DNA of 64,000 nt, from NCBI GenBank assembly GCA_003864455.1, contig BGZN01000003.1:25484-89483 (forward strand), read 5' to 3'. The DNA is from Candidatus Termititenax aidoneus (GTDB taxonomy: Bacteria; Margulisbacteria; Termititenacia; Termititenacales; Termititenacaceae). Positions 24,005 to 59,100 of the stretch are shown here, one piece after another. A program made the position numbers and the translations under genes. The notes under the pieces were generated by a model. That model made no database searches and was not told where the DNA came from. It worked only from the letters and a program-made list of their open reading frames with translations. How positions within the stretch are numbered: the stretch's first letter is position 1; every line of letters begins with the position of its first letter.

Positions 24005-24005
24005 A

Positions 24006-24431
24006 TTAGTTATTCCCCTTAGGTTTACGCTGCCAAAAAGCAAGCCGAGGCAAAAACAGTACAAATCTAAGCAACCAAGATTCTGGCCAAGGATAATTAG
24101 AAAATGGCTTTTTGTTTTTTATTCTTTTTTCTTCATCGTCTTGGCTATATATTTTGGTAATGGACAGAAAAAACATATTAGGAGTAAGTTTTCTTATTAA
24201 CCCATTAGAGGCAGAAACTGCACCGCAACAGAAATCAAGGAACGGTTTTTTATCTGCTGCGTCTAATTCTTTAGTGGATAATATCAGCCAACCTTGAATC
24301 TTTAATATTGTGCCTGCTTGATGCATAGAATCTGCATCTGTTTTTTGCGGTGTATATGTAATGTCAGACAAGCTGTCCCTTATTTGTCCCTCATCTAATA
24401 ACTCCGACCCAGTTTTTTTATTTTTCGCCAT
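24006..24431 (-). CDS. Hypothetical protein, 141 aa
   Basis: ORF in the element. No recognised domain. Confidence 0.35.
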   Translation of the reverse strand: MAKNKKTGSELLDEGQIRDSLSDITYTPQKTDADSMHQAGTILKIQGWLILSTKELDAADKKPFLDFCCGAVSASNGLIRKLTPNMFFLSITKIYSQDDEEKRIKNKKPFSNYPWPESWLLRFVLFLPRLAFWQRKPKGNN

Positions 24432-24661
24432 ATATGCTCCTAAAAATTAAGTATATCATATCCTATTGCTTAACAATAATATATATTATTTGTTCTGCAA
24501 TAAACTAAAATGCCAGTATCAAAATCAGGCAAAATTTTGTGTTTGGACTGCTAAAATATTTATGACAAATTACCATACGGAATTTCGTCACGAAACTTTA
24601 TTATTCAAGGCAGACTCATTGTATATTCTTTGATAATAGTTACCCCCATTTACAGATTATT

Positions 24662-25294: not shown

Positions 25295-25335
25295 CTATAC
25301 TTAATAAAAGTTTCGCAACTAAACTTCTTTATTAT

Positions 25336-26574: not shown

Positions 26575-26611
26575 TTTTCTTTTATAAATTGTCTGTTATG
26601 CGTTCTTGCCG

Positions 26612-26761
26612 TCATTGTTTTTTGTCCTCATTATTATTTGCCATACTTAATCTCATAGCCCGTCTGCGTTTGGCTTCTTTTATTACATTGCGAGCAATAA
26701 TTTCATTTACGGCCGCTGTCCTTTCCTCTAGGGTTGCATTCATTATCCTTAATAGAAACAT
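26612..26761 (-). CDS. Small basic protein, 49 aa (MFLLRIMNATLEERTAAVNEIIARNVIKEAKRRRAMRLSMANNNEDKKQ); candidate RHH/Xis-like regulator; below the ORF-track cutoff
   Basis: RBS GGGAGGTG 8 nt before the ATG. Immediately upstream of the Rep_trans-like gene, and divergent from the XRE gene across a palindromic operator. Confidence 0.4.
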   Translation of the reverse strand: MFLLRIMNATLEERTAAVNEIIARNVIKEAKRRRAMRLSMANNNEDKKQ

Positions 26762-26782
26762 TACAGAATCACCTCCCGTATT

Positions 26783-26812
26783 AAGCGTATGCTAGAATTA
26801 TAGCATACGCTT
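26783..26812. promoter_or_regulatory. Perfect 12-bp inverted repeat AAGCGTATGCTA-gaatta-TAGCATACGCTT in the divergent promoter region
   Basis: Read directly. Lies between the small RHH-like gene (minus) and the XRE-family gene (plus). Confidence 0.6.
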
Positions 26813-26838
26813 GAAAAAGGTCAACGGCTAGTATATAA

Positions 26839-27420
26839 TTGTGTTCTATGGCGATAAAACAGATAAACCCCGAACAGGCTCAACATTTGAAAAACCTGTT
26901 AAAACAAAAACAGATTAGCCTTGAAAAAATGGGTAAGGCTTTAGGTGTTAGCTTTCAGCTTGTTCATCAATACACTACAGGCCGGTGCAATCCATCGCCA
27001 GAAACAATGGCGGAAATGGCAAAGGTCTTAAGTGTTCCTCTTTGTTATATGTATATTGATTGCACGCAAAAAGCCTTAGAAGTTATTAGCAATTATTTTC
27101 AACAGCATGGCTTTTTCGTCAAAAAAGAGGTAGCAAAAACCTATTCTTGCGACCTGCTTTGCTTAAGCCCCATGCAAAACATTATCATAGCGGCAAATGT
27201 TAAAAAAACTTCGACAAAGAAATTTTCGGACTCAGCATTAAATATTGATTTTATAGAGCAATCTCTTAGAAAGACATACAATATAAAAAACTGTGTTTTT
27301 CTAAAGGTTGAAATAACTCCCGAAAAAGTACACATTAACTATGATAAGAAGTTAGAACATTTGCCCAGTTTACCAAAGTTACTTAAAGCTCTCGACAGTT
27401 TGTCGATTGTCTGGCCTTAG
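26839..27420 (+). CDS. XRE-family HTH regulator with a C-terminal extension, 193 aa
   Basis: HTH-like LKQKQISLEKMGKALGVSFQLVHQYTTGRCNPSPETMAEMAKVL. Confidence 0.55.
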   Translation: MCSMAIKQINPEQAQHLKNLLKQKQISLEKMGKALGVSFQLVHQYTTGRCNPSPETMAEMAKVLSVPLCYMYIDCTQKALEVISNYFQQHGFFVKKEVAKTYSCDLLCLSPMQNIIIAANVKKTSTKKFSDSALNIDFIEQSLRKTYNIKNCVFLKVEITPEKVHINYDKKLEHLPSLPKLLKALDSLSIVWP

Positions 27421-27573
27421 ATTTCTAACTACTAATTTTTTTCTATGACCATAAGCCCACATATTATAATGTTTAATACACAACCCTTTTCCGTGGTGCG
27501 GCTCATTACAACCTAATATAGTACAAGTCTTAATATATGGGTTTGGGAATAGGCCTACCCAAATAACGCTCAT
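27379..27573 (-). CDS. Cys/His-rich small ORF, 64 aa, at the right end of the element; in frame with the recombinase across the inferred attP
   Basis: CTILGCNEPHHGKGLCIKHY motif. The minus-strand frame is open from the element boundary (27618) to this ATG and matches the recombinase frame relative to the 10-bp core. Confidence 0.4.
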   Translation of the reverse strand: MSVIWVGLFPNPYIKTCTILGCNEPHHGKGLCIKHYNMWAYGHRKKLVVRNLRPDNRQTVESFK

Positions 27574-27631
27574 GGTATAATTTGTCCTTGCTCCATTCTT
27601 TGTATTGTAGGGTGGAATGGGGAACCAAAGT

Positions 27632-27730
27632 TACTAAAAGTCCTCCTTGCACGTCGCTACGCTTGTTGGTCTCACTTAACTTCGGGCTTACGCCCTTGTT
27701 AAGCTCGACGCGGGTAACCAAAGTGTTATA
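27632..27730 (-). repeat. Single diverged copy of the 104-bp repeat unit also found in tandem at 37032-37289
   Basis: Minus-strand read …GTCGAGCTTAACAAG[GGCGTAAGCCCG]AAGTTAAGTGAGACCAACAAGCGTAGCGACGTG… versus repeat unit …GTCGAGCTTAACAAG[CGAAGCG]AAGTTAAGCGAGACCCACAAGCACGCGAAGCGGGCGACGTG…. Confidence 0.6.
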
Positions 27731-27899
27731 CTTTAGGCTATGCGAAAGACGAAGCCTAAAAAACTCAAAGCGCGCGACGAAATTTTGCTGCGTCATATCA
27801 CTACCGGCAAGATCGGCTGCGGACCGCACAAAAATAAAATAAAATACAGCCGCCAACGCAGCAAACTCGAAACTAAAAATACCGCCGTGGAGGAACAAA

Positions 27900-28217
27900 A
27901 TGCCAAAACTTAAATTTACGCAGAACAGCAAAACTTACGAAGCGTGCGGCACGGATTTTCAAATACGCGTTTGGCAGGAATTGCGCAAGATCCCCAGAGG
28001 GCAAGTTATTACTTACGCGGAATTGGCGCGGCGCGCAGGCCGCCCGCGCTCCGCGCGGGCCGCGGCGAACGCCTGCGGCGCCAATCCGCTGCCGGTCATA
28101 GTTCCCTGTCACCGCGTTATCCGTGGCGACGGAGGTTTGGGCGGATACTCAGGAGTCGGCGGCGTGCGGAGAAAACGCGAATTGCTGCGCAAAGAGGGTT
28201 ATATTTTACTGGCTTAA
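27900..28217 (+). CDS. MGMT-family protein (O6-alkylguanine-DNA alkyltransferase DNA-binding domain only, YbaZ-like), 105 aa
   Basis: Active-site motif PCHRVI and an HTH (TYAELARRAG) are present. The N-terminal Ada/Ogt domain is absent. Confidence 0.8.
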   Translation: MPKLKFTQNSKTYEACGTDFQIRVWQELRKIPRGQVITYAELARRAGRPRSARAAANACGANPLPVIVPCHRVIRGDGGLGGYSGVGGVRRKRELLRKEGYILLA

Positions 28218-31200
28218 TTTTTTCTCGAGGCGTTTGATGTAATGTTCAGACCGGATTTCACAAAATATTTGCAAGGCTTTATCTAATATTTTTATTCTAT
28301 CGAAATAATTTTCATCGCGGCCTGTGGAATTGAACAACGAAGCGTAGTGGTACATAGATTTGCCCAGTTCATATTTACGGCCGATGAGTTTGCAGTGTTT
28401 TATAGACTGCAAAAATAACTTTTTAGCTTTGTCTTTTTTGTTGACCAGAACATTGTATCTCGCCGCCGCACGCAAAGCTCCGCCGTAATGTGTCGGCCAG
28501 TTTTTAGTCTCCCGTAAAGCTCTTTGGCTGGCTGCCTGAATTTGCCGCAGGAAATTTTCGCTGTCCGGAATTTTAGCCGTGTCGTTTTTATATTTTCGAT
28601 AATAAGCGATCAGGATTTCCGCATGATCATTCAAAATATTGATCGAATACTCTTTATTGAAATTCGCGCCTTCCGCGTTGTAATGCTCGATCGCTTCGGT
28701 GATGTAGCCTTTGGCTTTTTCCAGCTCGCCTTTTTCTAGGTAAAGCATGGACAGCTCGGTCAGCACATTGCAAAGCATTTGCTGTTCATCGCGTTTGTAC
28801 AATTCACGGGCATAACCTAAAGCGGTCAGGCCGGATTTTTCCGCTTGTTCCAGACTGCCTGTTTCAGCCCGAAGACTCAATTGCATCAAATTAGCGGAAG
28901 CCAGGCCGTAAGTGTCATTAGCCCTGGTTACGCGCACAAAGTATTTTTTGTTTAATTCATCGGCTGCGGGGTATTTGGCCAGCGCGTAATACACATAAGA
29001 CATGGAGGTTTGCACGCGGGCGATATGCTCGTTGTCGCCGGCTATGGAAAAATATTTAAGGCTTTTTTCCAGATAATGCTGGGCGCGGCGAAAATCCGCT
29101 TTTAGCCAGAGATAATTATAGGCCGAAAACTGATAAAGCTGCCCTAGACCAAAAGCGTTTTTGTTTTTCTCATTTTTTCCATACAGAATCTCAGCTTTTT
29201 CAAAGTATTTTTGCGCGGAATTAAACTTGCCGAGATTGAGCATGATAAGGCCTAGGCCGCAGTAACTTAAAGCTTCTTCACTGGATTTAGGCAGAAAATG
29301 TCTGGCGATGCCGTTCATTTTCAAAATACAATAGGTTAGTTTTAACCGATCGGTCGTGGAATAATTCCAGGCCAGCGTATTATAGAACCAGATTTTTTGC
29401 GCCGCGCGTTCCTTATCTGCCCGGGATTGTTCTGACGGAAAACTGGCCATAACGTCCAGCAACTGCAGGGCTAAATAGCCTTTCGTAACTCTTTCGGGAA
29501 AACTTTCCTCCAAAATTTTTAAACCATTCAGGCCGTAATATTCACAACTGCTGTAATTGGCTTGTTTATAATACGCGGCGCATAAAAAACTGTAAGCTCT
29601 GGCTTTATCCGGCGGTGAATTTAAAAAAGGCATAATTTTGTTGAGCAGATTTTCCGCTGACGCGACCTGTCCGACCACCAAATACAATTCGGCTAATTTT
29701 AAACCGGACTGGATATGTCCTTCTGAACCTTCCTGCGTGCTGGCGACTACAGACTCCAGCACATTGATCGCTTCTGCATAGGCAAAACCTTGAGCATGCT
29801 TCAGCGCGGCAGTATAACCGTGTTTCCAGGATTGATCCAGGATTACGGCGGATTGACTGTTTTGTGCGTGATAATAAAGGTCTTCGGCCTGCTCAGTTTT
29901 CTCTTCTGTGGTCAAACGGCCGTCCAGAAAATTTAAAGCGGCGGCATGTACAACGCTGCGGATTTTTTCCGGCAGATCATTCAAAAGCACCTGCCGGATA
30001 TAGTCATGGACAAAAACGATTTCATTTTGGTCGTTCAAGCGCACCAACTGAGCCTCCACAGCGTTGCGGATCTTAGTGGCGTTTAATTTCGGACATAGCC
30101 TGCTAAGGTCTTCAACAGTCAGGCTTTGCGCGCCGACCGCCGCGGCATAAATTAGCAAAGCTTTAGTCTCATTATCTAAAACATTCAGTTTGTCATGTAT
30201 CGAATCTTTGGTCAGCGGCGCAATAGAGATTCTTTCAGCCCGTTCTTCCGAGAAAGTCCATTGATTGTTTTTTAAGTAAAGAACCGGCGGGTCTATGGCG
30301 TTCTTTTCTGTGTTGGCGCTTTTTAGTTGTTTGACAATCTCCAGCGCATAGAAAGGATTGCCGCCGCTTTTTTTCTGCACCCAGTTGGCCAGGGCGGAAA
30401 TAGAGCTGTTCCTTTGCTGCAGCTCATTGACGATCATTTTTTCCGTGTCCCGTAAATTAAAATTTTGCAGAGCCAATTCTTTGGCGCTGGCCAGTAAATT
30501 TTCCTTGAGAAAATCAAAATTGACATGCAGCAAAGGCTGGATTTCTTTGTAGGTGCAGACCAGCAGCAGATAAGAACTGGCTAACTGTTCGCGGGATAAT
30601 TTTTCCAAAACTTCCTTGGAATATGAGTCGAGCCATTGTAAATCATTCAGCACGATGACCATGCCCTGTTCAGCCGCGGCCAGACAGAGCAAAAACCGGA
30701 TAAATATATTGCAGAATTTAAGCTGTTCGCTGGAAGAGGTGTCCATTTTGACTGAAAAAGACAAATTTTCGTCATTAAGGTTTAGATCGAGCAGTTCGCC
30801 TAATTGCGGAGCAAAACTCTGAATTTCTTTTTCATAATCTATGCCGTAGTTTTCCATCTGTTTTTTTAGCTCGGCTGAAATCGCTGCTTTTTTGTCGTGA
30901 GGATAACTTCTAAAACGTTTGATATACGTGATCAGTATTTGTTTGAAAGCCAGATAAGGCTGTTGCCGGTCGCCTAGTTCGAATCCGCCTTCCATAAACG
31001 GCTTGAGATTTGCTTTGGCAATAGGTTTCAACTGGCCGGCCAGAGCGGTTTTGCCAATGCCGGATTCGCCGCTGATTATATATACGTTGCCTTGTTTTTG
31101 CAGCGCGCTGTGGAAAGCGTTTTTTAATTGTTTTACTTCAGCAAGGCGTCCGACAAAATTTTCTCCGGAAGGAAAAGCGCTAAGGTTAGACGAGACACCC

Positions 31201-31253
31201 TGCGCTAAAAGCTCTCGATTTGAGTGAATTACTTTATGATGCATAACGTACAA
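28206..31253 (-). CDS. STAND-type NTPase (AAA_16 P-loop + long TPR-like helical C-terminus), 1015 aa, no recognisable DNA-binding or effector domain
   Basis: FVGRLAEVKQL…ISGESGIGKTAL resembles the AAA_16/MalT-type N-terminus. The ~900 aa repetitive helical region has TPR character. The gene is lower in GC than its neighbours. Confidence 0.65.
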   Translation of the reverse strand: MYVMHHKVIHSNRELLAQGVSSNLSAFPSGENFVGRLAEVKQLKNAFHSALQKQGNVYIISGESGIGKTALAGQLKPIAKANLKPFMEGGFELGDRQQPYLAFKQILITYIKRFRSYPHDKKAAISAELKKQMENYGIDYEKEIQSFAPQLGELLDLNLNDENLSFSVKMDTSSSEQLKFCNIFIRFLLCLAAAEQGMVIVLNDLQWLDSYSKEVLEKLSREQLASSYLLLVCTYKEIQPLLHVNFDFLKENLLASAKELALQNFNLRDTEKMIVNELQQRNSSISALANWVQKKSGGNPFYALEIVKQLKSANTEKNAIDPPVLYLKNNQWTFSEERAERISIAPLTKDSIHDKLNVLDNETKALLIYAAAVGAQSLTVEDLSRLCPKLNATKIRNAVEAQLVRLNDQNEIVFVHDYIRQVLLNDLPEKIRSVVHAAALNFLDGRLTTEEKTEQAEDLYYHAQNSQSAVILDQSWKHGYTAALKHAQGFAYAEAINVLESVVASTQEGSEGHIQSGLKLAELYLVVGQVASAENLLNKIMPFLNSPPDKARAYSFLCAAYYKQANYSSCEYYGLNGLKILEESFPERVTKGYLALQLLDVMASFPSEQSRADKERAAQKIWFYNTLAWNYSTTDRLKLTYCILKMNGIARHFLPKSSEEALSYCGLGLIMLNLGKFNSAQKYFEKAEILYGKNEKNKNAFGLGQLYQFSAYNYLWLKADFRRAQHYLEKSLKYFSIAGDNEHIARVQTSMSYVYYALAKYPAADELNKKYFVRVTRANDTYGLASANLMQLSLRAETGSLEQAEKSGLTALGYARELYKRDEQQMLCNVLTELSMLYLEKGELEKAKGYITEAIEHYNAEGANFNKEYSINILNDHAEILIAYYRKYKNDTAKIPDSENFLRQIQAASQRALRETKNWPTHYGGALRAAARYNVLVNKKDKAKKLFLQSIKHCKLIGRKYELGKSMYHYASLFNSTGRDENYFDRIKILDKALQIFCEIRSEHYIKRLEKKLSQ

Positions 31254-32581: not shown

Positions 32582-33265
32582 ATGGCACGAATTGCAAGAA
32601 TAAAACCTGTAGGACAGATATACTCGGTAGTTACCAGAGTGAATAATTCTGATTTTGCGTTTGCGGATCGCTCTGTATGCACTGCATTTCTCAAGCATGT
32701 AAAAGAAATAAAGGCCGAGCTTGGTTTTAAGCTTTATGCTTTTGTGCTTATGTCTACACATGTGCATCTCTTGATAGAGCCAAACGAGGCAATCGCGGAT
32801 ATTTCAGAAATTATGTGCCGGATCAACGGGCTGTTTGCCAAAAAATACAATGCTTTCCACAAACGTAAAGGGCATTTCTGGATGCAGAGATTTGGTAGTA
32901 AACTGGTGGAAATGGGGCAATATTTTACCAATACAATTGTCTATTTTATGCTCAATCCGGTAAAGGCTGGAATTACAGATAATCCGCTGAAATATGAATA
33001 CAGCAGCATACATAATATTATTTCCGGTAAATTTTCTGATCTGCTGGACAGGCTTCCACAGGCCTGTGTTGAATATATAAAAGATTTTCTGCGTCAGAAA
33101 AATTTTGTAAAAGTATTGAATAAATGCAAACGCTTCTTGCGGCGGTTCAGTTTTAATCTGCGAAAAACAAGGCGAGAGCAAAAGTTCAGGCATTTTATTG
33201 GCGGCCAACAATTCTATGAGCGATGTATGAAGAGATATATAAATCTTTGTGGCCAGAGTTGTTGA
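32582..33265 (+). CDS. IS200-like/REP-associated tyrosine transposase (Y1 HUH transposase, RAYT-like), 227 aa
   Basis: HUH motif LMSTHVHLLIE and the conserved …FWMQRFGSKLV…Y… C-terminal region. No IS terminal structures are evident around it. Confidence 0.75.
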   Translation: MARIARIKPVGQIYSVVTRVNNSDFAFADRSVCTAFLKHVKEIKAELGFKLYAFVLMSTHVHLLIEPNEAIADISEIMCRINGLFAKKYNAFHKRKGHFWMQRFGSKLVEMGQYFTNTIVYFMLNPVKAGITDNPLKYEYSSIHNIISGKFSDLLDRLPQACVEYIKDFLRQKNFVKVLNKCKRFLRRFSFNLRKTRREQKFRHFIGGQQFYERCMKRYINLCGQSC

Positions 33266-33436: not shown

Positions 33437-33540
33437 CAGTGCCAAATATGCCAATATGCCCAAGTATGCCTGTCCCTTGTCCGTCCCTTGTCCGGGAATG
33501 GGAATGTGCCTGTCCCTTTTCGTCGTCCCTTTTCGTGTGC
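33437..33540. repeat. Cluster of short direct repeats upstream of miaA (ATATGCC x3; GTCCCTTGTCC x2; GTCCCTTTTCGT x2)
   Basis: gccaaatatgccaatatgcccaagtatgcctgtcccttgtccgtcccttgtccgggaatgggaatgtgcctgtcccttttcgtcgtcccttttcgtg read directly. Confidence 0.6.
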
Positions 33541-35276: not shown

Positions 35277-36464
35277 ATGGTCAGCCGCAATCCCAATTTT
35301 GCCAGACTGCAGGCCGGATATTTGTTTCCCGAAATCGCCAGACGCCGCCGCGCTTTGCTGGAAAAACAGCCCGACGCCAAAATCATCAGCCTCGGCATCG
35401 GCAATACTACCGAGCCGCTGACGCCGATAGTCACCAAAGCTTTGACGGAAGCGGCCGCGCGGCTGGGCACGGCGGACGGTTATTCCGGCTACGGCGATGA
35501 ACAGGGGCTGCCAGCCCTGCGCGAGCAAATCGCCAAAGTTTTGTATCAAGACCTGATCCGCGCGGAAGAGATCACTATTTCCGACGGCGCGAAATGCGAC
35601 ATCGGGCGGCTGCAAATTTTGTTTGGCGGCCAAGTGACTGTGGCCGTGCAAGACCCGGCTTATCCGGTCTATGTCGACGGCTCGATTATCGCCGGCGCGG
35701 ACTCCGGTTTGCAATATATGACTTGTCGGCCGGAAAATGATTTTTTTCCGGATCTGGGCAAATTGCCGCGCGTGGACTTGATCTATTTTTGCTCGCCAAA
35801 TAATCCCACCGGCGCGGCGGCTACCAAAGCCCAGTTGGTAGAATTGGTAAAGTTTGCCCAAAAGAATAAATCCATAATAATTTTTGACGCGGCGTACAGC
35901 GAATTTATCACGGACAAGAATTTGCCGCGGAGCATTTATGAAATAGACGGCGCGGACGAGGTGGCTATTGAGGTCAATTCTTTTTCCAAATCGATTGGCT
36001 TTACCGGCGTGCGGCTGGGCTGGTGCATTGTGCCTAAAAAAATAAAATTTGCCGACGGGACGCTAGTCGGTCAGGACTGGACGCGCGTTATCACCACGCT
36101 TTTTAACGGCGCGTCAAATATTGCTCAAGCCGGCGGTCTGGCCGCGCTGACCGCCACCGGGCGTCAGGAAACCAAAACGCTGCTTGCCTATTATCAGGAA
36201 AACGCGCGGCTCATTTGCGAGGGCTTGCAGGCTTTGGATATTCAGATTTACGGCGGGGTTAATTCTCCATATATTTGGGCGCATTTCCCGGCGCAAAAAT
36301 CCTGGGATATTTTTGAGAAAATTCTTAACGAAGCCCACGTCGTAACCACGCCGGGCGCCGGTTTTGGCCCTGCGGGAGAGAATTTTGTCCGGTTTAGCTC
36401 ATTTGGCCGCAGGGCGGATATACAGGAAGCGGTGCGGCGGTTAAGCAATGTGTTAAAAAATTGA
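35277..36464 (+). CDS. dapL: LL-diaminopimelate aminotransferase (DapL pathway)
   Basis: N-terminal …NFARLQAGYLFPEIARRR… is characteristic of LL-DAP aminotransferases. Fold-type I aminotransferase with SFSK lysine. Confidence 0.8.
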   Translation: MVSRNPNFARLQAGYLFPEIARRRRALLEKQPDAKIISLGIGNTTEPLTPIVTKALTEAAARLGTADGYSGYGDEQGLPALREQIAKVLYQDLIRAEEITISDGAKCDIGRLQILFGGQVTVAVQDPAYPVYVDGSIIAGADSGLQYMTCRPENDFFPDLGKLPRVDLIYFCSPNNPTGAAATKAQLVELVKFAQKNKSIIIFDAAYSEFITDKNLPRSIYEIDGADEVAIEVNSFSKSIGFTGVRLGWCIVPKKIKFADGTLVGQDWTRVITTLFNGASNIAQAGGLAALTATGRQETKTLLAYYQENARLICEGLQALDIQIYGGVNSPYIWAHFPAQKSWDIFEKILNEAHVVTTPGAGFGPAGENFVRFSSFGRRADIQEAVRRLSNVLKN

Positions 36465-36507
36465 GACAGTTTCTGGCTTGTAACGATTAAATTACCGGAG
36501 GCGAGGT

Positions 36508-36972
36508 ATGCGAAATATGCGGCGGAAATTTATCGGCGGCTATGCTTATTTTAAAAAAATGAACGATTTGGCGCGTTTTCTTTCCCTGCAAATCCCGGCA
36601 TTAAAAATAGCGGTGCAAGAAATCCTCAACGAAAAATTTACAGAAGAAGAACGGCTGGCTTTTTACAATGGCCGCAAAATCAACGAATACCCGGCTGATC
36701 TGGGCGCGTATGAAGAGCCCAATATGGAAACTCTAAAAAAGCACGCCGAGGAATACCAAAAACTAGTGCAAAAATTTGACCGGCTTTTGACAGCGACCGC
36801 TATAGGCCGGGTTTTTCAGAATTTACGCGCAAACAACGAATTGTTTGATAAGCAGTTAGAAATGTTGGAGGACGAAATGTACCAGAAGGCGGCAGAACAG
36901 GGTTTGCCAGGAGTAGTGCTGCCCTTGAGCGATGAATATCTCGAGATTTACAGGATACTGGGCGGACAATAG
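36508..36972 (+). CDS. Hypothetical protein, 154 aa, immediately upstream of the tandem repeat and the giant operon
   Basis: RBS ggaggcgaggt. Predicted helical. No recognised domain. Confidence 0.5.
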   Translation: MRNMRRKFIGGYAYFKKMNDLARFLSLQIPALKIAVQEILNEKFTEEERLAFYNGRKINEYPADLGAYEEPNMETLKKHAEEYQKLVQKFDRLLTATAIGRVFQNLRANNELFDKQLEMLEDEMYQKAAEQGLPGVVLPLSDEYLEIYRILGGQ

Positions 36973-37031
36973 CAAATACTTATATGCTCATGGTATAAAA
37001 TTGCTGTTTGAGGGTATTCTTTTCCCAGCGC

Positions 37032-37289
37032 GACGTGATAATTTAAAAAAACGTGCAACGATTTTGGGTTGCTTACGAGTCGAGCTTAACAAGCGAAGCG
37101 AAGTTAAGCGAGACCCACAAGCACGCGAAGCGGGCGACGTGATAATTTAAAAAAACGTGCAACGATTTTGGGTTGCTTACGAGTCGAGCTTAACAAGCGA
37201 AGCGAAGTTAAGCGAGACCCACAAGCACGCGAAGCGGGCGACGTGATAATTTAAAAAAAACGTGCAACGATTTTGGGTTGCTTACGATA
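37032..37289 (+). repeat. Tandem direct repeat, 104-bp unit x ~2.5 copies (period 104; the third copy has A8 in place of A7 and is truncated), ending 48 bp before the giant gene's start
   Basis: Unit GACGTGATAATTTAAAAAAACGTGCAACGATTTTGGGTTGCTTACGAGTCGAGCTTAACAAGCGAAGCGAAGTTAAGCGAGACCCACAAGCACGCGAAGCGGGC. Copies begin at 37032, 37136 and 37240. Contains stems GCAAC/GTTGC and GCTTAAC/GTTAAGC. Confidence 0.9.
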
Positions 37290-37336
37290 TATTAGTAAGC
37301 ATAAAACCTGAAACTCGAAAATGTTAGGAGTAAGGT

Positions 37337-40300
37337 ATGTATCAGTATTTGCTTAAAGTGATTTCCGATATAGCAGGCCCGCCGGCTACAGGGAGAATTG
37401 TTAACCCAAATGTCCCGAATCCTCATAATAATGCAGGGCAGCCGGTTTTGGAAACAGCGCTGAGCCCGTATTTGAATGCGCTGGTTAAAGAAAGTAGTTA
37501 TGTTAAAGGTTTTACACTGCAAGAAAATGGAATTGAGCCTAATATTTTCGCCTACAATATAGACGTGTTCGTAGAAGGATTAGGAAACCCTTTTAAAGGC
37601 GTAGTGATTTATCATGATGTTGATGTTGTTGGAGGAAAGAAAGGCGAGCCTTATCTGGCTGTGGTGAGGGACGCCGCCGGAAATCTGAAACTTTATCAGG
37701 CCAGTCCTGAAAATGTGGCAGCCGGAATAGATAGAATAGTTATTGGAGCTGAAATAACGAATAGCAGAGTGGAAACAGGTGCAAATGGGGAGATTACCGG
37801 AGCGGTGGTAGGGGTGGCGGATATTGTGCCGCACAACGATGGTCTGTCTGAAGCTGCCAGAATAGGAACTGGCGCGGCTGAGAGAATTACCGGAATAAAT
37901 TATATCAATAATATTGATGGCGAGGCTCTTAGTGTAAAAGAAATAGAACGGCTGAGAGTTGCCGGACGTTTGGCGGAAATTCCCAATATAAGCGCTTATG
38001 TAGATGATGTAAATAAAATGTTGACGGAAACTCATTCTATTTCACTGCGGCATAGAGAGGGGCCGCTGGGAATAATCGACTGGGCGGAAAACGGATTGGA
38101 AGGCTTAAAAGAATTCTTAGTGCTCACTAAAGCTTATCCGCGCAAAGGAGTATCTTTTTTAGCTAATGCCACGGCCTTTTTGAGCGTGCTGACACCGCAT
38201 CTGTCTATGCTTGGGAATCAGCAAGTCGCTCCTTTCTTTGCCCTTTTGTTCTTTCAATATTTTTATGGTTCGATTAATTATTTTAATAACAGTATGCGGC
38301 TTTTTGAGAAAGATAGTTATGAATCCAATATAAGCTCGGGCGAAAGTTTTGTGCAAAGGTTGAAACTGGACGAAAAAACGGCTGAGTATTTTAAGGATTT
38401 GTTTTCTAATGCCGCGTTAAAAAGCGGGAAATATAAGAATTTTATAAAACTGATAGAACACACCAAAGGAGCTGACGGCAAAGATCAAGTAAACTCTTTT
38501 GGCGAGAATGCCGGCATTACGGTGGAGAAATTTGCGGACGGCAAGATGACTTTAACTATCAATTATGGCATAGCCGACGAGAATAATGAGGTCTGGCGGC
38601 ACTTTATCCAAGAAGATGTCCTGCAGACAGCCAGGGAACAATTGACCGATCTGAAAAGCAATTGGCCAAAATATAATGGCGGAGCAGTCCCTGCTGAGAC
38701 TTCTCCCGAGTATGCGCAATATCTAAAGTCTCCCGAATATAAGGCTTATAAAAAAAGCGCTGAGGGAAAAAAATATAAAAGCCTGGAGGCTATCGTTGGC
38801 ATTATGGAGTCTGTGTATAAACAATCTCAAATTCGCTTTCTCTTGCCGCAGGCCGGCCGCAGGCAGCGCGCGCGCGCTGGTTTTTGGCTTTTTGATTTGA
38901 AAGAGCTTGGCGTAAAAGACGGTTTTCAACTGGCGGGCGACTTGGCCGGCGGTTTGGGCGCTTATATCCATGAGCCTGGTAAAGAAACAGACAATCGGCG
39001 GCTTTTGCAGATCAATTATCATTTGAAAACCGCGGAATTGGAGAATCTAATAAAAGCTTTAAGCGCAAATGGCGCGGATGAAGCGGCGATACAGAAAATA
39101 CGGATTGCTTACAAGATAGTTTCTCAAAACTTCTATGCGGATGCCCAGGGCAATCCAAATTACCAGATACCTGTAGATCAGCGCGCGACACAAGTGGCTA
39201 CGGATCGGCTGACTTTTACTTCTGCTCCGGTGTGGGATGTTCTTCAAGATATTTACACTGCGGCTGAGCAGGAATTTCATACTTTTATGCGCCTGCAAAG
39301 CAATATTCAAAACAACAGCAACAATTCTCTGGATGACGCTCAATCTAGAGGTTTGGAAATAATGGGACGCGACACCGAAGCGTGGAAAAATGCGATGCGG
39401 GCTGTTTTGCTGGAAGGCGGTGTTACGGGAGAGTTGTTTGCGGCGGTGCAGGATTTAAAAAAGCAACTGGCAAATAAAACCGGCTTAACACAGGCTGGCG
39501 TCAATGCGGCTATTGATAGCGCGGCTTTTAAAGACAAGATTCGCGGAATCATAACGAATTATTTTTCAGCTGGCGGCGATCTAAATATCGGGGCTAGAGT
39601 CGACGGCATTTTAAAAGACCTGAAGCAGGAATTTACTATTGATGCAAACGGCAAACTGCAAACTAATGATTATGGCGTAGGGAACACTTTGTTTTATTAT
39701 GTTCTCCTAAATGGCGCGGAAGCCGGACGGGATCTGCGCAGTGTGAACATATTTGAGTTTTTTACGCAGTTGGCTGATGCTTACGGCCGGCATATACCAA
39801 TGTCGGCGATTTTGGCGGAAGCTGTAGCCAAAGCTTTTCCGTCCGATGATTATTCCCGCGATCAGATACGCAAAGCCCTGAATTTTTGTTATCTAAACGG
39901 CAATATGTTGCTGGATGAGCAGTTATACGTAGAGGACGGCCGTTACAAAGGCCGGCAGTTGTGCATAGACCCGCGCCGCGCCGAAGACAGAAATGCCAAA
40001 AAAGCAGATTCGGCGGTGTCGCTGGAGGATTATTTGATGGAGTTCTTCTTCGGAGATGCTGTAAAAGCGGAAGATTATAAAAAGCATCCTGAAAATATGT
40101 ACAGCTTAAACAGGATAGATATTAAGAATTTCGTGAATATTTTAAATCATAAAATAGCTGTTCAAAAACGAGCGGAATACTTTGCCGAACTGACGTTTAA
40201 ATTGAGAACCGGCGACTCGATGAGCCAAACGGAGATCGACAATTTGGTTACTATGCTTACCGAACGCTACAGCATGGAAGAATTTACGGCCAGGCAATTG

Positions 40301-43300
40301 ATCGATTTTCTACAGACAGGGGCTGTGCGCGGCGCTATCGAGACCAGAACAATGGCTTATGAAAATGCTTTCATAGGCTTTGATAGATTAAATAATGTTA
40401 ATTTTATGAGCGATTTCGCTCCGGAAAAGAAGCGGGATATTTACCTCGCTCTGATGGCCTATCAGAAATGGCAGACTGCTAAACATCATAATAAGAAACC
40501 TACTGCCGTGGAAGGGTTGGAAGCGGTTGATCCGGCAAGACTAAGAGACAAAATAGAGAGAGAGAATTTAAAACAAGAGTTAATCCAAGCGTTTGGTTCA
40601 GCAGAAATAGCGGAAGCTATGCTGAGCACAGACTTTTTTAATGCCGATAAAACTTCCGGCGGCATACGGTATACGTTCCGCGCCTCGATAGAGTATGACA
40701 TCAGGCTGGCTTTTTGCCAGGCTATGCAGCGGCTGTATCACGACAATCGGGTGTATGTGCTGGAGCATCCTGCGAATGTAATGAATAAAGAGAAAATAGA
40801 GAAAAAAGAGGTTAAACTTTCGAATCAGGCGATCAAAATAATCAGCGAAAAACCGTTTAAGGGCGAGATAGAATTTGTGCATTCCAAAGATTTAGGAAAT
40901 GGCAAACGTGAGGGCCAATTAATTGTTGCCGCTGCCAATTCCAAAGAGTTTTTGGATTTAATTATGAACCCGGGGTTGACTCCTGATGATCGCAACGAAT
41001 TAATGAGAATCTATGAGGAGTATCATTATTTGAAAGCGGAATATGCGAAAGCGAAAGAGTCCTCAGGCGATAAAACGGTGCCCTTGTCTAAGGGAACGCT
41101 AGAATTGATCCGGAACAAATATAAAGATATTGTTTCTCCCAATGATGATAACAATGATGCAAAAAAAGTAATCTTGTCTTTTACAAATGATTCTTACAGC
41201 ATGATTGCCCTGCTTTGCGATCCGAGCCTGGATAATGTGCAGGATGCGGAAGCGCTGCGCAAAGTGTTTGCGGACTATTTGGAAATAGCCGTGATCAACC
41301 GGACTATTGAGCTGAGCAAGGCGGCTTTTGCTGTGCTGGACGCGCATAGATTTAATGTAGCTGAAATGCGTGAGTACATGGACGAACTGGCGCGGGCAAA
41401 CCCCTATTTGGCTACGCTGGAGCCTAGACTACAGTATCAACACGCCATGCGGGAAATGCATAAAAAAATACGCAATGAACTGGTAAATAGTTTTGGCGAA
41501 TTTTTTGTCGGCCTAGAACAGGAAGCAGAAATGAATAAGCTGGTGGATACGCTGATGGACGCACTGGCTGAAGGCGAAGCGTTTCAAGAAGCTTCGACTA
41601 ATGGCTTGCTGCAACAAACCAATATGCTGGTTTTAAGCGTGGCGCAGTTGCATAACAAAACAATAATGAACACGAACTCTGCTTTGGGAGAGATGACTAG
41701 AACCAGCAGAGATGAAGTCAATAGCTTGTTGAACAACCGTCCTGAAAAGGTAATCGAAACCTCGGAAGGCAAAACAGAACCAAACCCCCAAAGAGAGATT
41801 TTTGATATGTTCTATAACCTGCTTAAATCTTTTGGCGGAAAAAAACTGACCGGACTGGCCACCGGCGCTTACTGGACAGTGCCTTTTGATATCGCGGCGA
41901 AAGGCCTGGCTGGAGATGTGTACCGCGCTATGAATGATGAGAAAAGACACGCTGGTTTTGGCGTAAATCAAGGTGTTCGCGCTGCGTCCGATTTTGGCGA
42001 ATATGTGGCCGAGACTGCTCTCGGCGGCCAAGAAGGGCATAATATGGTTGACATCAAGGGCAATGGAGACAGGCCGATAGCGATATTCTCCCTGGATAAT
42101 ATTGTCGGCGCCAGCAATATTCATCCCGTGCTGCTGGATCTGACCAGCCAAAAATTTATGCAGAACGGCAAAGTGCGTAGTATTTCGGATATGCATACAC
42201 AGGGCTTTATCAGTAATGAAGCTTGGGATATGCAACAAGAGTATGAGGTCTTGCATGATCGGTTTCTGGAATTAACTAATGAGAGCCTCGGCCGTTTTCT
42301 TACTGCAGCAGAAGAGCGGGAATACCTGGATTTAGAGGCTAAATTTGACAGCGGCAAAATATTTGCTGACGCCGCAAAACAGCAGAAATATGAGGATTTT
42401 TTGATTTTGGCCGGAGCTGCCGGAAAAGACTGGAAAGAATTAAACGGTCATGAGACGCGGGTTTTGAATGATTGTGCCGCGCAATATTTGCGTAAGATAT
42501 TTGAGGCCGCCGGCTTGCCGTCTGCTGCGGAAGGGCATTGGAGCGAATATGATTTGCAAAAAATCATTGATAGCGCCAAAGATTTATTGGCTGCGGAGAA
42601 TGATTTCCGGACCGCATTGGATGAGCTTTTGGCTACGCCGGAGATCGGCCTGAATAGAGACACGGCGATGGTAGCTGTGGATATGCTGTATAAAACATTT
42701 TTAGAAGAAGGAAATGACAATAAAGCGCTCAAAGTAGCCGGCAGCAAAGATGATCTTGGCAAACTGCAGTCCGCAGGGTTTATAGCGATAGATCCGCGGT
42801 TGTTTATTACAAAGTATCATGAGTTGCAAAACGGCAAAGGACACAGTATCAAAGGGACAGACAAGGATCAGCCGGATCTAAATTATTTGACGTCAAACAC
42901 TCTAGGTGATTATATTTTTGCGGCGGCGGATCAGGCTGTTAATTCTGGCTGGCAGACGGAGGCAAGAGAGGCCACGGGCGAGCCGGAAACGATGTTTTGG
43001 CTGGACAGACCGGCAGTCTCGATGGACAGCACTTTGAAGCCGGATACTCTGACCATGGCTTTTACCGGACGGACGCCTTTTGAGAATATGCAGAAGTTGA
43101 TTAAAACGGTTATTCAGTACTGGCGTGAACGGAATGGCGCATATGATCTGAAGACAACTTGGAAAAGATATAAAGAAGAAATGATGTACGACACTATCTC
43201 CGCTACGTTCCAGAATATGTGGTATCGCGGCAATCTTTATCCTTTTTTGCCGGTTTTAGATCAAGTGTTTGCTGAAATGGATAAACTCGATATAAAAAAT

Positions 43301-45271
43301 GCGCAAGGCCAGACGGTAAAAATGTTTTCGCAGAATAATTTGCGCGAACTTTTTGATCTGGATAATAATGGAACTTACAACTATAACCATGAGTTGGACA
43401 TGCAGCGCAATGGCAACAAAAAGCTGGATGAGATTTTTAAACAGGTAATGGAAAAAATACTGGATAAGAATAATCCCAATCCTCTATTTGTTGTGGGCAG
43501 CCGGGAATGGCAGACGCTGGTCTTGACCAATGCCGCCGAAGTAACCATCCGGGAAAAAATTGACGCGGTAGTGCAGGGCACTTTGGATAAAGATTTCAAA
43601 ACTTATTTATTTTATCTAGAGGGCGTTTACAATCTCTGGAAGCCGCGCTTGGACGGTACGCTGGTCAATGTCAACAGTATTCTAGCGCAAGCCGAACAGG
43701 AAATGATGTATACGCTTTTCAATAGTCTCCAGCTCGGCGGACATGTGGATATGCAAATGTTTAATTACATTGCCGCTTATGTGCAGGGACAGATGGGCTG
43801 GGAGCAGGACCAGGGCTGTTCCAATTTCCATCTGCTTAAATGGGATGCTTATTTTCATATGACCCGTATGGCTCTGGAGTTTGCCGCGGCGCCGGCAAAT
43901 ACTCCGCCCAATCTGCGAACCAAATTTATGGTGGAGACACTGCCTTATCTGAGCAGCACAGGGATCATGATGGGGCTGGCTTTAGTCTTGTCCGCTCTGA
44001 ACGCGCCAATGCTGCTGAGCGCCGGTGCACTGCCTGTGGCGCTGCATCAGATGCTGACCAAGTTTGTGCCTCGGTTTCAAGATTGGATACGCGCCAAAGC
44101 GAAGACCACTGAATTATCGGTTAATGCTTTTTATCCCAGTGTCTTGCGCTGGACTCTGGATCTCGTAAAAAAATATTCCGCGGTGGAGGATGCGCGTTCG
44201 CAGACAGAGCAAATTAAATGTTATGACGCTTATGGCCGGCATATCTTTACCATACCCGGCGGCGCTATCGCGGAAGGCGATTGGGCAGTGGCTTATGGCC
44301 AAATGTTCCGCTGGTTTGGGGCGGACACCGAGCTGCGGGTCGTGGAAGGAATAGACGGCAAGCGGTATGAATTGCAAATTAAAAGCAAGAGACTATCCAA
44401 CGCTATTTACCGCCGTTATGTGCAGCATTATAAAGAGGCCGAACAGCATGTGCAGTTTCCCTTGTCCACAAACTACAATTTGCGCTTCCCGACCTTGATG
44501 ATGACCACGCCGCTGGTGGGCATGTCGATGTTTAATTTTAAATCTTCTTTCTTGTCCAACGGTTTGGGAGGCGTGTTTGGCGCTTTGGGCGTTTCGCCTG
44601 AATCTTCCCAGCAGTTTGGCTCGTATGGTGCGATAGGTCTGGTTTCCGCTCTGGCCTTGGTTCATTATTATGGGATACAAAATCAGATCAAACAGACTTA
44701 CGCCAGCTCGGGCGTAACAGAACGGGCGGCGCAGATGGCGGAAGACCGCGCCAATCTTAATGACGGCAAAATGATCGACACCCGTCTGGAAAATGTGCTG
44801 GTTTCTTTTTCCAAAGCGGCGTTTAACACTACAGAGCCGCTGGCTATTCCGGAGTACAAATCTTTTGACGAATTTTATCTAAACCGCGCGGAGAATGATC
44901 TGGCAAAACTAAAAGCAGCGGTGAGTGCCCTGAATTTGATGACGGATAATACCGGACATATTGCTGCTCGAGAGGAATTGTTCGGCCATAAGCTTAGCCG
45001 GATACGGCACTGGTGGAAATTGCATGCTCCGAATGGCGCATTTAATGTGTCTGTCGGGCTGCCCATAGCCACCGCGATTGGTTTGGGTATACAGCATTTT
45101 GCTTATGGCACAGAGCCTCTGATGATACCGCTGCTGGCAGCGGGTTTTGCTGTGCCTTGGTTTGCAAAGCTTTCGCAGAAAAAACTCTTTCTAAGTCCAA
45201 AATCCTATATGAATGAACACGGACTGGTAGGCGTGGCAGGCAAGAAAAAATATGAAGGCACAATAGAATAG
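37337..45271 (+). CDS. Giant protein A, 2644 aa, no signal peptide, several C-terminal hydrophobic helices, no recognised domain
   Basis: RBS taggagtaagg. One uninterrupted ORF. C-terminal hydrophobic segments (GIMMGLALVLSALNAPMLLSAGALPVAL; GLGGVFGALGV…AIGLVSALALV; VSVGLPIATAIGLGI…LMIPLLAAGFAVPWF). Confidence 0.8.
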   Translation: MYQYLLKVISDIAGPPATGRIVNPNVPNPHNNAGQPVLETALSPYLNALVKESSYVKGFTLQENGIEPNIFAYNIDVFVEGLGNPFKGVVIYHDVDVVGGKKGEPYLAVVRDAAGNLKLYQASPENVAAGIDRIVIGAEITNSRVETGANGEITGAVVGVADIVPHNDGLSEAARIGTGAAERITGINYINNIDGEALSVKEIERLRVAGRLAEIPNISAYVDDVNKMLTETHSISLRHREGPLGIIDWAENGLEGLKEFLVLTKAYPRKGVSFLANATAFLSVLTPHLSMLGNQQVAPFFALLFFQYFYGSINYFNNSMRLFEKDSYESNISSGESFVQRLKLDEKTAEYFKDLFSNAALKSGKYKNFIKLIEHTKGADGKDQVNSFGENAGITVEKFADGKMTLTINYGIADENNEVWRHFIQEDVLQTAREQLTDLKSNWPKYNGGAVPAETSPEYAQYLKSPEYKAYKKSAEGKKYKSLEAIVGIMESVYKQSQIRFLLPQAGRRQRARAGFWLFDLKELGVKDGFQLAGDLAGGLGAYIHEPGKETDNRRLLQINYHLKTAELENLIKALSANGADEAAIQKIRIAYKIVSQNFYADAQGNPNYQIPVDQRATQVATDRLTFTSAPVWDVLQDIYTAAEQEFHTFMRLQSNIQNNSNNSLDDAQSRGLEIMGRDTEAWKNAMRAVLLEGGVTGELFAAVQDLKKQLANKTGLTQAGVNAAIDSAAFKDKIRGIITNYFSAGGDLNIGARVDGILKDLKQEFTIDANGKLQTNDYGVGNTLFYYVLLNGAEAGRDLRSVNIFEFFTQLADAYGRHIPMSAILAEAVAKAFPSDDYSRDQIRKALNFCYLNGNMLLDEQLYVEDGRYKGRQLCIDPRRAEDRNAKKADSAVSLEDYLMEFFFGDAVKAEDYKKHPENMYSLNRIDIKNFVNILNHKIAVQKRAEYFAELTFKLRTGDSMSQTEIDNLVTMLTERYSMEEFTARQLIDFLQTGAVRGAIETRTMAYENAFIGFDRLNNVNFMSDFAPEKKRDIYLALMAYQKWQTAKHHNKKPTAVEGLEAVDPARLRDKIERENLKQELIQAFGSAEIAEAMLSTDFFNADKTSGGIRYTFRASIEYDIRLAFCQAMQRLYHDNRVYVLEHPANVMNKEKIEKKEVKLSNQAIKIISEKPFKGEIEFVHSKDLGNGKREGQLIVAAANSKEFLDLIMNPGLTPDDRNELMRIYEEYHYLKAEYAKAKESSGDKTVPLSKGTLELIRNKYKDIVSPNDDNNDAKKVILSFTNDSYSMIALLCDPSLDNVQDAEALRKVFADYLEIAVINRTIELSKAAFAVLDAHRFNVAEMREYMDELARANPYLATLEPRLQYQHAMREMHKKIRNELVNSFGEFFVGLEQEAEMNKLVDTLMDALAEGEAFQEASTNGLLQQTNMLVLSVAQLHNKTIMNTNSALGEMTRTSRDEVNSLLNNRPEKVIETSEGKTEPNPQREIFDMFYNLLKSFGGKKLTGLATGAYWTVPFDIAAKGLAGDVYRAMNDEKRHAGFGVNQGVRAASDFGEYVAETALGGQEGHNMVDIKGNGDRPIAIFSLDNIVGASNIHPVLLDLTSQKFMQNGKVRSISDMHTQGFISNEAWDMQQEYEVLHDRFLELTNESLGRFLTAAEEREYLDLEAKFDSGKIFADAAKQQKYEDFLILAGAAGKDWKELNGHETRVLNDCAAQYLRKIFEAAGLPSAAEGHWSEYDLQKIIDSAKDLLAAENDFRTALDELLATPEIGLNRDTAMVAVDMLYKTFLEEGNDNKALKVAGSKDDLGKLQSAGFIAIDPRLFITKYHELQNGKGHSIKGTDKDQPDLNYLTSNTLGDYIFAAADQAVNSGWQTEAREATGEPETMFWLDRPAVSMDSTLKPDTLTMAFTGRTPFENMQKLIKTVIQYWRERNGAYDLKTTWKRYKEEMMYDTISATFQNMWYRGNLYPFLPVLDQVFAEMDKLDIKNAQGQTVKMFSQNNLRELFDLDNNGTYNYNHELDMQRNGNKKLDEIFKQVMEKILDKNNPNPLFVVGSREWQTLVLTNAAEVTIREKIDAVVQGTLDKDFKTYLFYLEGVYNLWKPRLDGTLVNVNSILAQAEQEMMYTLFNSLQLGGHVDMQMFNYIAAYVQGQMGWEQDQGCSNFHLLKWDAYFHMTRMALEFAAAPANTPPNLRTKFMVETLPYLSSTGIMMGLALVLSALNAPMLLSAGALPVALHQMLTKFVPRFQDWIRAKAKTTELSVNAFYPSVLRWTLDLVKKYSAVEDARSQTEQIKCYDAYGRHIFTIPGGAIAEGDWAVAYGQMFRWFGADTELRVVEGIDGKRYELQIKSKRLSNAIYRRYVQHYKEAEQHVQFPLSTNYNLRFPTLMMTTPLVGMSMFNFKSSFLSNGLGGVFGALGVSPESSQQFGSYGAIGLVSALALVHYYGIQNQIKQTYASSGVTERAAQMAEDRANLNDGKMIDTRLENVLVSFSKAAFNTTEPLAIPEYKSFDEFYLNRAENDLAKLKAAVSALNLMTDNTGHIAAREELFGHKLSRIRHWWKLHAPNGAFNVSVGLPIATAIGLGIQHFAYGTEPLMIPLLAAGFAVPWFAKLSQKKLFLSPKSYMNEHGLVGVAGKKKYEGTIE

Positions 45272-59040: not shown

Positions 59041-59100
59041 CCGCGGCTGCAATAAAGGGCAGCTAATTACGATATCTATATAGATAGAAAGAGAGGGAAT

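Follow-up and report, generated by a model that had tools for sequence, protein, structure and literature searches.

Known systems and the array

Intergenic minisatellites near bacterial promoters are known from the mycobacterial interspersed repetitive unit-variable number of tandem repeats (MIRU-VNTR) loci of mycobacteria and from phase-variable promoter repeats. The Correia elements of Neisseria are promoter-carrying miniature elements with terminal inverted repeats and target-site duplications. Published promoters of extracytoplasmic function (ECF) sigma factors have a -35 element tgaAAC and a -10 element CGTA, CGTC or CGAC, separated by a spacer of 14-17 nt (PMC5758882). Repetitive extragenic palindromes (REPs) are imperfect palindromes with compensatory changes and a GT(A/G)G head, usually present in more than 100 copies per genome, with a rayt gene located between two inverted REPs (PMC2817692). 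The subject of this work is a tandem array with a 104-bp period at 37030-37287 (+) of a 64-kb window, that is, the whole stretch of DNA analyzed, from Candidatus Termititenax aidoneus (Margulisbacteria), an uncultured bacterium of the termite gut. It lies just upstream of a 25.7-kb giant operon. On balance, the array probably arose when the promoter region of this operon was recently amplified in tandem, so that one putatively intact promoter is preceded by two crippled duplicates. Lineage-specific and variable in copy number, it adds to known kinds, namely the promoter-region minisatellite, the ECF-like promoter and the REP-like palindrome, and is a modest regulatory oddity, not a new system.

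Structure of the array

Tandem Repeats Finder, applied to the window, reported a period of 104, 2.5 copies, 99% matches and a score of 507, about six times that of the second-ranked array. Between the two full units, 37030-37133 and 37134-37237, identity is 100%, and the partial third copy matches at 37 of 37 nt, bar one added A (A8 at 37253-37260 versus A7 at 37045-37051). Period and copy number thus agree with the first-pass annotation of this DNA, and its unit phase (37032, 37136 and 37240) is equivalent to ours; the motif that it reported as repeated, GCGAAGCG, occurs twice in each unit, and both of its stem-loops, GCAAC-n8-GTTGC and GCTTAAC-n12-GTTAAGC, are present. It also placed the array just upstream of the 2644-aa gene, correctly, although the homology ends at 37287 and leaves 49 nt, not 48, to the ATG at 37337. 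The array occupies part of a 364-nt gap between a 154-aa open reading frame (ORF; 36508-36972) and the 2644-aa ORF.

The layout of the array is P1-E1-P2-E2-P3, where each unit is composed of P, its first 50 nt, and E, its 54-nt second half. P1 (37045..37081, +) comprises the A7 tract, a -35 element TGCAAC (37054-37059), a 16-nt spacer and an altered -10 element CGAGTC (37076-37081). P2 (37149..37185, +) is the same in sequence, with its -35 at 37158-37163 and CGAGTC at 37180-37185. P3 (37253..37290, +) is the sole complete promoter-like copy, with the A8 tract, TGCAAC at 37263-37268, a 16-nt spacer and the -10 element CGATAT at 37285-37290. The hairpins E1 (37079..37114, +) and E2 (37183..37218, +) lie between them. 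Segment Y (37288..37336, +) connects the array to the ATG; it carries a Shine-Dalgarno sequence, AGGAG (37326-37330), and a GTAAGC (37295-37300) that can pair with GCTTAC (37280-37285). This composite unit, a promoter coupled to a dispersed hairpin element, was missed in the first-pass annotation, as was the membership of the GCTTAAC hairpin in a repeat family with a copy elsewhere in the window.

The repeat junction lies within the -10 element and reads CTTACGA|TAT in P3 and CTTACGA|GTC in P1, P2 and the upstream copy of a related locus, L012; hence only P3 keeps the full TGCAAC-N16-CGATAT. P3 ends 46 nt before the ATG, and the intact copy of the relatives, present in all of them, is likewise close to the start codon, at an equal distance. 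The idea of a reiterated promoter or operator gains support from the comparison of loci, as the conserved core is a promoter-like bipartite motif, although the junction cuts the -10 and leaves a single copy intact. The view that the array is not a CRISPR was right: with a repeat of 50 nt, the two 54-nt 'spacers' are identical to each other and have homologues in L012 and at 27.7 kb of the window, which excludes it.

As in promoter-near VNTRs, the units are head-to-tail, non-coding and in the range of ~50-100 bp, and copy number differs between related genomes. The array differs from VNTRs in being a composite of promoter core and hairpin, in a junction predicted to inactivate the -10 in all but one copy, and in that its variation is known here between species-level relatives only. 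With tandem promoters and Correia elements it shares serial promoter-like sites before one operon and a small repeat at a promoter sequence; however, E has neither terminal inverted repeats nor target-site duplications, and the consensus -10 is found in one of the three copies only.

The whole 104-bp unit has no other occurrence within the window. Exact-pattern scans with CGTGCAACGATTTTGGGTTGCTTACGA in genome contigs and with GCAACGATTTTGGGTTGCTTACGA in metagenome contigs, collections that seem to lack the source genome, gave zero matches, and a 19-mer of the leader gave eight matches in metagenomes, all of them chance matches of 19-22 nt without flanking homology. No similarity was found in plasmid and phage collections. 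In viral contigs the E pattern had no match, and the promoter pattern had 50 single matches, which by our own arithmetic equals the chance expectation. The only Rfam matches in 35500-38500 had 16.8 and 14.6 bits, far under the gathering scores. A stand-alone small RNA (sRNA), one of the earlier suggestions for the array, is not upheld, given the lack of an Rfam match and of conservation in the short GCAAC hairpin.

The array is crossed by 11 small ORFs of at least 20 aa on both strands, including ORF 36932-37150, which does run through it as had been stated. None of them can be conserved whole because the E segment is missing in most relatives. A coding role for the repeated 29-aa ORFs was dropped; the underlying sequence is missing from relatives.

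The promoter-like motif

Related loci were collected through the giant protein encoded by the 2644-aa gene, a homologue of which led to L001 (the same contig as L002), and through close homologues of dapL, the LL-diaminopimelate aminotransferase gene upstream of the operon, which led to L011-L021. Across copies, the core of P reads TG(C/A/G)(A/G)A(C/T)-N16-CGATAT, with a spacing of always exactly 16 nt and, at most sites, an A-tract or AT-rich sequence 5' of the -35. Fifteen sites were seen in ~440 kb of scanned strand, versus ~0.3 expected by chance (own arithmetic). The exact TGMAAY-N16-CGATAT occurs only twice in the window, both times directly upstream of giant-operon genes. The second site, TGCAAT-N16-CGATAT (59048..59075, +), is internal to the operon and ends 25 nt before the ATG (59101) of its 640-aa gene. 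With unrelated spacers, the motif also precedes non-orthologous genes of the window and relatives, at least six further ones with the sRNA-like genes included, and is always oriented towards the gene. These sites include L012 1950 (-), before a HAD hydrolase gene; L016 4923, before a 680-aa gene with its ATG at 4961; L014 6088, with -10 CGATTT, before the gene that follows dapL; and the sRNA-like genes at L016 7054, L018 5704 and L014 1134, where the first helix begins 7 nt after CGATAT and the gene ends in a terminator. From the end of the -10 to the start codon there are 10-46 nt across the protein-gene sites, including the giant-gene orthologues.

The rpsB promoter of Ca. T. aidoneus is a canonical sigma-70 promoter (TTGCAA-16-TG-TATAAT), so the P motif would belong to a different class. 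A sigma-70 scan (TTGACA-(16-18)-TATAAT, at least 9 of 12 matches) of the gap 36973-37336 gave no site. By sequence, P resembles the ECF pattern, with an AAC-core -35, a -10 starting with CG and a 16-nt spacer. It resembles the ECF (group 4) promoters of Bacillus subtilis sigW, sigX, sigM and sigV (PMC5758882) in its bipartite form, in a -35 ending in AAC (tgaAAC there, TGCAAC or TGAAAC here), in the -10 starting with CG, in a fixed short spacer, in a T-run just after the -35 and in tight adherence to the consensus. It differs in its -10, CGAT(AT), extended to cTTACGATAT, and no cognate sigma/anti-sigma pair was seen in the scanned window ORFs. P is a candidate alternative-sigma promoter motif for an uncultured lineage and may be used to define a regulon.

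From the motif and its setting we infer how the array would work. RNA polymerase with an alternative, ECF-like sigma factor would start at ~37297 (37295-37299) downstream of P3, an estimate taken from the distance of 7 nt between CGATAT and the first helix of the sRNA-like genes. The mRNA would then have a leader of ~40 nt carrying the Shine-Dalgarno sequence AGGAG. P1 and P2 would be weak or inactive, or perhaps served by a different sigma factor; a transcript from either, if it fires, would start with the E hairpin. The extra units would provide two more -35/A-tract sites for sigma region 4 and the C-terminal domain of the alpha subunit. They would also shift a conserved upstream element, X, by 208 bp away from the intact promoter, from 42 to 250 nt upstream of the intact -35, and the 104-bp period would be close to ten helical turns. 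Copy number would change through unequal recombination or slippage between P copies, which would explain relatives with one, two or three copies. Should the number of copies influence expression, the array would serve a bacterium-on-bacterium symbiosis as a simple genetic switch of what is probably a cell-surface apparatus.

The sRNA-like genes themselves (L016 7054-7188, L018 5704-5842 and L014 1134-1266) are orthologous, and no such gene was found in the window. The first helix starts with GUAAGCAG and has the loop CCUCCCUCCCCCC; it is followed by a terminator hairpin with the loop CCCCUCCCCCC and a U-run. No Rfam family was assigned, the only match being ar14 with 24.8 bits versus a gathering score of 58.8. 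Shine-Dalgarno sequences could be pairing partners of the C-rich loops. The P motif lends indirect support to this new sRNA-like gene of the relatives.

A P-like site with one mismatch, TGCAAT-N16-CGATAA, is present at 14033-14060 (-) and ends 10 nt before the ATG (14022) of a 241-aa gene without family. The L016 site at 4923, with the ATG at 4961, has a matching geometry, which suggests that this putative promoter class may give leaderless transcripts. The sigma-70 promoter of rpsB (14056-14083) overlaps the P-like site on the opposite strand.

Copy number in related genomes

Nucleotide identity of dapL to the window is 87% in L011 and 86% in L001, down to 72% in L019. The synteny of dapL and the giant gene is kept in the relatives, with intervening cassettes that differ by genome, and a module of X, P and Y is located directly upstream of the giant-gene orthologue in every one of them. 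In L001, for example, X, one P and Y directly precede the orthologous giant gene, and window and L001 are 84% identical over a stretch that takes in the end of the array, Y and the gene's first 93 nt. At the orthologous site there are three P copies in the window, two in L012 and one each, without tandem repeat, in L001, L011, L013, L016, L019 and L021; the single copy of these six loci is orthologous to P3. L012 has P-E'-P with the same junction, CTTACGA|GTCGAGC; its E' is 37 nt long and homologous at both ends to the 54-nt E of the window, and its P copies have diverged (3 differences in 25 nt from the -35 to the junction), whereas those of the window are identical. L020 retains, upstream of its P, the 3' half of E'. 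Over the relatives, one P is seen at seven loci and P-E'-P at one. The array is therefore variable in copy number, as had been proposed, since one, two or three P copies occur among related genomes. Conservation of the repeat unit holds in part: P is kept in relatives, but E is missing in most. These differences are evidence that the promoter region of the operon is structurally unstable between close relatives.

On a neighbour-joining tree of dapL, a single copy is found in the closest relatives, L011 and L001, and two copies in L012, which is placed further away. Most simply, an old P-E-P state would have collapsed repeatedly by recombination between P copies, with a recent re-amplification or homogenisation of P-E-P in the window lineage.

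It seems quite unlikely that the copy number is an artefact of assembly or of multiple-displacement amplification and that the true locus is P-E-P or a single P. In the Termititenax genome study, the genome was reportedly rebuilt from the amplified DNA of a small number of cells, and the 100% identity of the two full units is the outcome expected of a loop in the assembly graph. However, L012, an independent metagenome assembly, has P-E'-P with the same junction, which shows the composite architecture to be real in the lineage. One A and the sequence that follows set P3 apart from P1 and P2, so that at least two P contexts plus E must have been present in the reads, and the 258-bp array is short enough for read pairs to span. 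At least P-E-P is real, because it was assembled independently in L012 and because P3 is unlike P1 and P2.

In L013, the 5' part of P (3322-3364) has its own internal duplication of ~19 nt (GTGAATAATGTTTAAAGAA / GTGATAAGTTGAAAAAA), and the module stands before a different N-terminus (MIRWFLK...). This duplication is another sign of a slippage-prone promoter region.

Element X and the possibility of a structured leader

Element X (36992..37019, +) has the form GGTATAAAA-n11-GGGTATTC, with two GTAT motifs 21 nt apart, and is conserved in front of the giant gene in every relative. It was found in the window, L001, L011, L012 (twice), L013, L016, L019, L020 and L021. In non-coding sequence it is confined to the giant-gene upstream modules, including the second L012 module, and its distance to the -35 is 18-56 nt among loci. 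X could be a site for an operon-specific regulator or a second promoter with a sigma-70-like -10. Readings of X as a sigma-54 (GG-N10-GC) promoter or as a sigma-28 -35 were rejected by eye, since spacing or key bases are not conserved. The cyanobacterial SigF promoter has TAGGC and GGTAA (PMC2532724). X contains GGGTAT, and in L019 also TAGGC, with a spacing about 3 nt too long for SigF, so that the resemblance is a lead only.

Several points weigh against the reading of the array as an amplified promoter. No sigma-factor gene was found among the scanned window ORFs, the -10 of P is CGAT, unlike the CGTA, CGTC and CGAC of Bacillus ECF promoters, and P aligns equally well, in register, with the sigma-28-type consensus, TAAA-N15-GCCGATAT; for these reasons the motif would be ECF-like by architecture only. 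The assembly derives from the amplified DNA of a few cells, and its copy number may be wrong. X matches P in its degree of conservation and includes a TATAAA, so that transcription may start upstream, in which case the array would be a leader. A hairpin formed by P3 and Y is kept in four relatives, with 84.6% of cells paired and several wobbles that pair only on the + strand.

The last two points would fit a structured 5' leader of ~330 nt, starting from X (TATAAA at 36994-36999), in which the E hairpins and the A/Y hairpin immediately 5' of the Shine-Dalgarno sequence would control mRNA stability or translation; a promoter at P3 could coexist with it. X starts, in every relative, right after whichever gene precedes. 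The sense strand of E looks like RNA: its loop, GUAA, is of the GNRA type, G.A pairs occur in tandem, and its G.U pairs would become A.C on the opposite strand. The variants UG, CA, CG and UA of the P3/Y stem UUUYRGG..CCUGAAA pair only as + strand RNA, more distant relatives keep a hairpin after CTTACGATAT that is formed from different sequences, and the entire intergenic + strand has a folding z of -3.4. A strong folding z-score, however, is expected of any tandem repeat that bears a palindrome. Covariation in the P3/Y stem is indistinguishable from that of shuffled alignments, as 204 of 500 shuffles reach the observed score, so that the covariation anticipated among homologous copies was obtained for the E hairpin, with its compensatory changes, but not for this stem. 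X gave no promoter in the sigma-70 scan and has no conserved -35, the E' of L012 is without the 5' arm of the hairpin, and the leader has no Rfam match. Furthermore, E is missing altogether in most relatives and is thus dispensable for the operon. We regard a structured leader as unlikely, if less so than the artefact, and prefer an amplified promoter region.

The hairpin element

The E hairpin has 36 nt. In E1 it reads GTC-GA-GCTTAAC-AAGCGAAGCGAA-GTTAAGC-GA-GAC, followed by the 3' tail CCACAAGCACGCGAAGCGG to 37132; its covariance-model score is 55.9 bits, and E2 is the same by unit identity and by the covariance model. The base GTC-GA-GCTTAAC ... GTTAAGY-GA-GAC is conserved between copies, the apical stems differ (GC-GAA-GC, GGGC-GTAA-GCCC and GCACA-GGG-TGTGC), and two basal pairs covary. 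Among the copies, 97.7% of cells are paired and 4 of 14 pairs are changed on both sides; a score as high as the observed one arose in 12 of 500 shuffles, and sliding the partner by 1-3 columns leaves at most 34% paired. A paralogue is located at 27642..27709 (-), with the hairpin at 27669-27709, the apical stem GGGC-GTAA-GCCC and the tail CAACAAGCGTAGCGACGTG; it was detected by blastn, nhmmer (E = 2e-18) and the covariance model (60.1 bits). L011 has a copy between miaA and dapF (57.6 bits), and L001 has a minimal copy just after dapL. The tally is thus three copies at two loci in 64 kb of the window, and one full and one minimal copy in 82 kb of relatives, where an exhaustive covariance-model search revealed no full copy beyond that of L011. 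E is a new small hairpin repeat family.

The 27.7-kb copy was considered as a whole P-E unit and rejected, as the similarity of its upstream sequence to P is not significant (p = 0.5 in local and 0.03 in anchored alignment).

An action of the array on the minus strand, where the long hairpin and GCAAC-n8-GUUGC followed by U7 would form an antisense terminator or sRNA, is very improbable. A terminator scan does report three minus-strand sites, one per copy, and the minus strand can form a hairpin of 10+7 bp with G.U pairs. These three sites compare with 1.8 expected, which is no enrichment, and in each of them a stem of only 5 bp closes a loop of 8 nt. Neither the GCAAC/GTTGC pairing nor the A/T run persists in L001, L011 or L012, the extended minus-strand helix is missing from the 27.7-kb and L011 copies of E, and no minus-strand gene is nearby. 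The covariance model favours the sense strand of E (+ at the array) with 55.9 versus 12.4 bits, and folding energy is better on the sense strand in 4 of 5 copies. The GCAAC-n8-GTTGC hairpin is the -35 element paired with part of the spacer, and the terminator predictions based on it are weak.

The genome also harbors a gene for a RAYT (REP-associated tyrosine transposase)-like Y1 transposase (32582..33265, +; PF01797; NF047646 with 78.9 bits versus a cut-off of 80; IS200 model with 20 bits). E, or the whole TTAC-bounded unit, might then be a non-autonomous palindromic element moved by this enzyme, and the array a by-product without regulatory role. The gene is 3.8 kb upstream of the array and syntenic in L012. 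The apical GCGAAGC of E matches the motif of a very stable single-stranded DNA mini-hairpin, and in L016 and L020 E or its 3' half is found just upstream of a P-type promoter at another locus. E is, moreover, dispersed and intergenic, and the arms of its palindrome carry compensatory changes, as in REPs (PMC2817692). Like REPs and bacterial interspersed mosaic elements (BIMEs), it is a short, extragenic, imperfect palindrome with covarying arms, dispersed and clustered, in a genome with a RAYT-like gene. However, it lacks the GT(A/G)G head, starting instead with GTCGAG or CTCGAA after ACGA, CCGC, TTGG or GGGT. No E flanks the RAYT-like gene, where the sole nearby match has 8 bits (E = 7.8), and the element is sparse. 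Its copies in the array are direct, not alternating as in BIMEs, and alternate with promoter copies instead of BIME linkers. The TTAC flank is missing at the other E copies, and nothing significantly similar to P precedes the 27.7-kb copy. Transposition without regulatory consequence is therefore improbable on these grounds, and E is not filed as a REP, given its missing GT(A/G)G head, its sparseness and its absence beside the RAYT-like gene.

An IS608-like insertion 3' of TTAC was rejected on account of the missing TTAC flank at other E copies.

A more far-reaching scheme retains promoter amplification and adds mobility to it, and is held here only as a speculation with little chance of being right. 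P-E would form a portable cassette that joins an alternative-sigma promoter to a REP-like hairpin and is spread or amplified by RAYT-like single-stranded DNA transposition or by recombination in the shared promoter core. Its copy number would be an evolvable dial on the giant operon, through X moved off and decoy sigma sites, and the operon may serve the attachment of the ectosymbiont to spirochaetes.

The RAYT-like gene is single-copy, with loci at 32582-33265 in the window and 41-712 in L012. Repeats of GTCCCTT(G/T)TC and TGCCAAATA are present at 33440-33540, just 5' of the apparent true miaA start (ATG 33562), and a GGGACA-type motif is found again in L012 (1950-2060, 6443 and 6690), including beside promoter modules.

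The E paralogue at 27.7 kb is at the right edge of a low-GC island, beside a small ORF that by eye is HNH-like. This island (15930-28200) has a GC content of 0.34-0.38 versus ~0.46-0.54 in its flanks, and starts at tRNA-Gln(CTG) (15930-16004). It contains a serine recombinase gene (15972-17555, -), genes for ParB, ArdC-like and TPR proteins, and internal repeat families (20579-24145), and is probably an integrated mobile element. Adjoining its edge, 28206-31253 (-) encodes a 1015-aa STAND-type NTPase (AAA_16 plus TPR/MalT-like repeats).

The giant operon and its surroundings

The array marks the control region of an operon of five genes (37337-63011), with products of 2644, 1566, 3009, 640 and 656 aa that are without recognisable domains and essentially confined to Termititenax-like bacteria. 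The first gene (37337..45271, +) encodes the 2644-aa protein, which is 100% identical to NO1_0359 of Ca. T. aidoneus and has no Pfam or NCBIfam family; in a search of 5.8 billion proteins it had a single other homologue, with 32% identity over 30% of its length. The five proteins together gave no significant family in Pfam and NCBIfam, only a sub-threshold TPR match. Homologues of the operon were found only in Termititenax-like genomes, with 26-32% amino acid identity, compared with 89% for the neighbouring DapL protein. A hydropathy scan detected one transmembrane-like segment near residue 2208 of the first gene product and one at residues 23-41 of the second. Searching for related loci with an alignment of the giant protein recovered only the contig already known (L001/L002), and a profile of its N-terminus only the fragment of L012 itself.

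A common N-terminal motif is found in genes within or close to the operon: MYQYLLKVISD, MLLLKLIADKG, MLLKNINFEDK, MSYLYLLKQIANS, MYRYLLKVIAE and MLLRKLYGFGE, at window 37337, 59101 and 61041, L016 11481, L019 12797 and L014 6147. In several of them it is followed by a P/N/G-rich stretch. This motif may be a targeting or secretion signal.

Upstream of the operon are miaA, dapF and dapL. Between dapL and the giant gene lies a hot spot for cassettes (window 36465-36990, L001 1316-2960, L012 5007-6340, L019 11186-12460 and L020 955-1560), which is empty in L011, L016 and L021. It holds the 154/151-aa ORF in the window and L013, an AAA_14/DUF4143 ATPase gene in L012 and L019, and a nucleotidyltransferase gene in L020. 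In L001, DUF6088 and AbiEii genes lie between copies of a 45-bp direct repeat, whose sequence corresponds to the 3' end of the DUF4143 ATPase gene of L012 and L019.

Elsewhere in the window, ORF 5344-6486 (380 aa, without Pfam family) contains a 93-bp tandem duplication at 5772-5957, with 83% identity between its copies.

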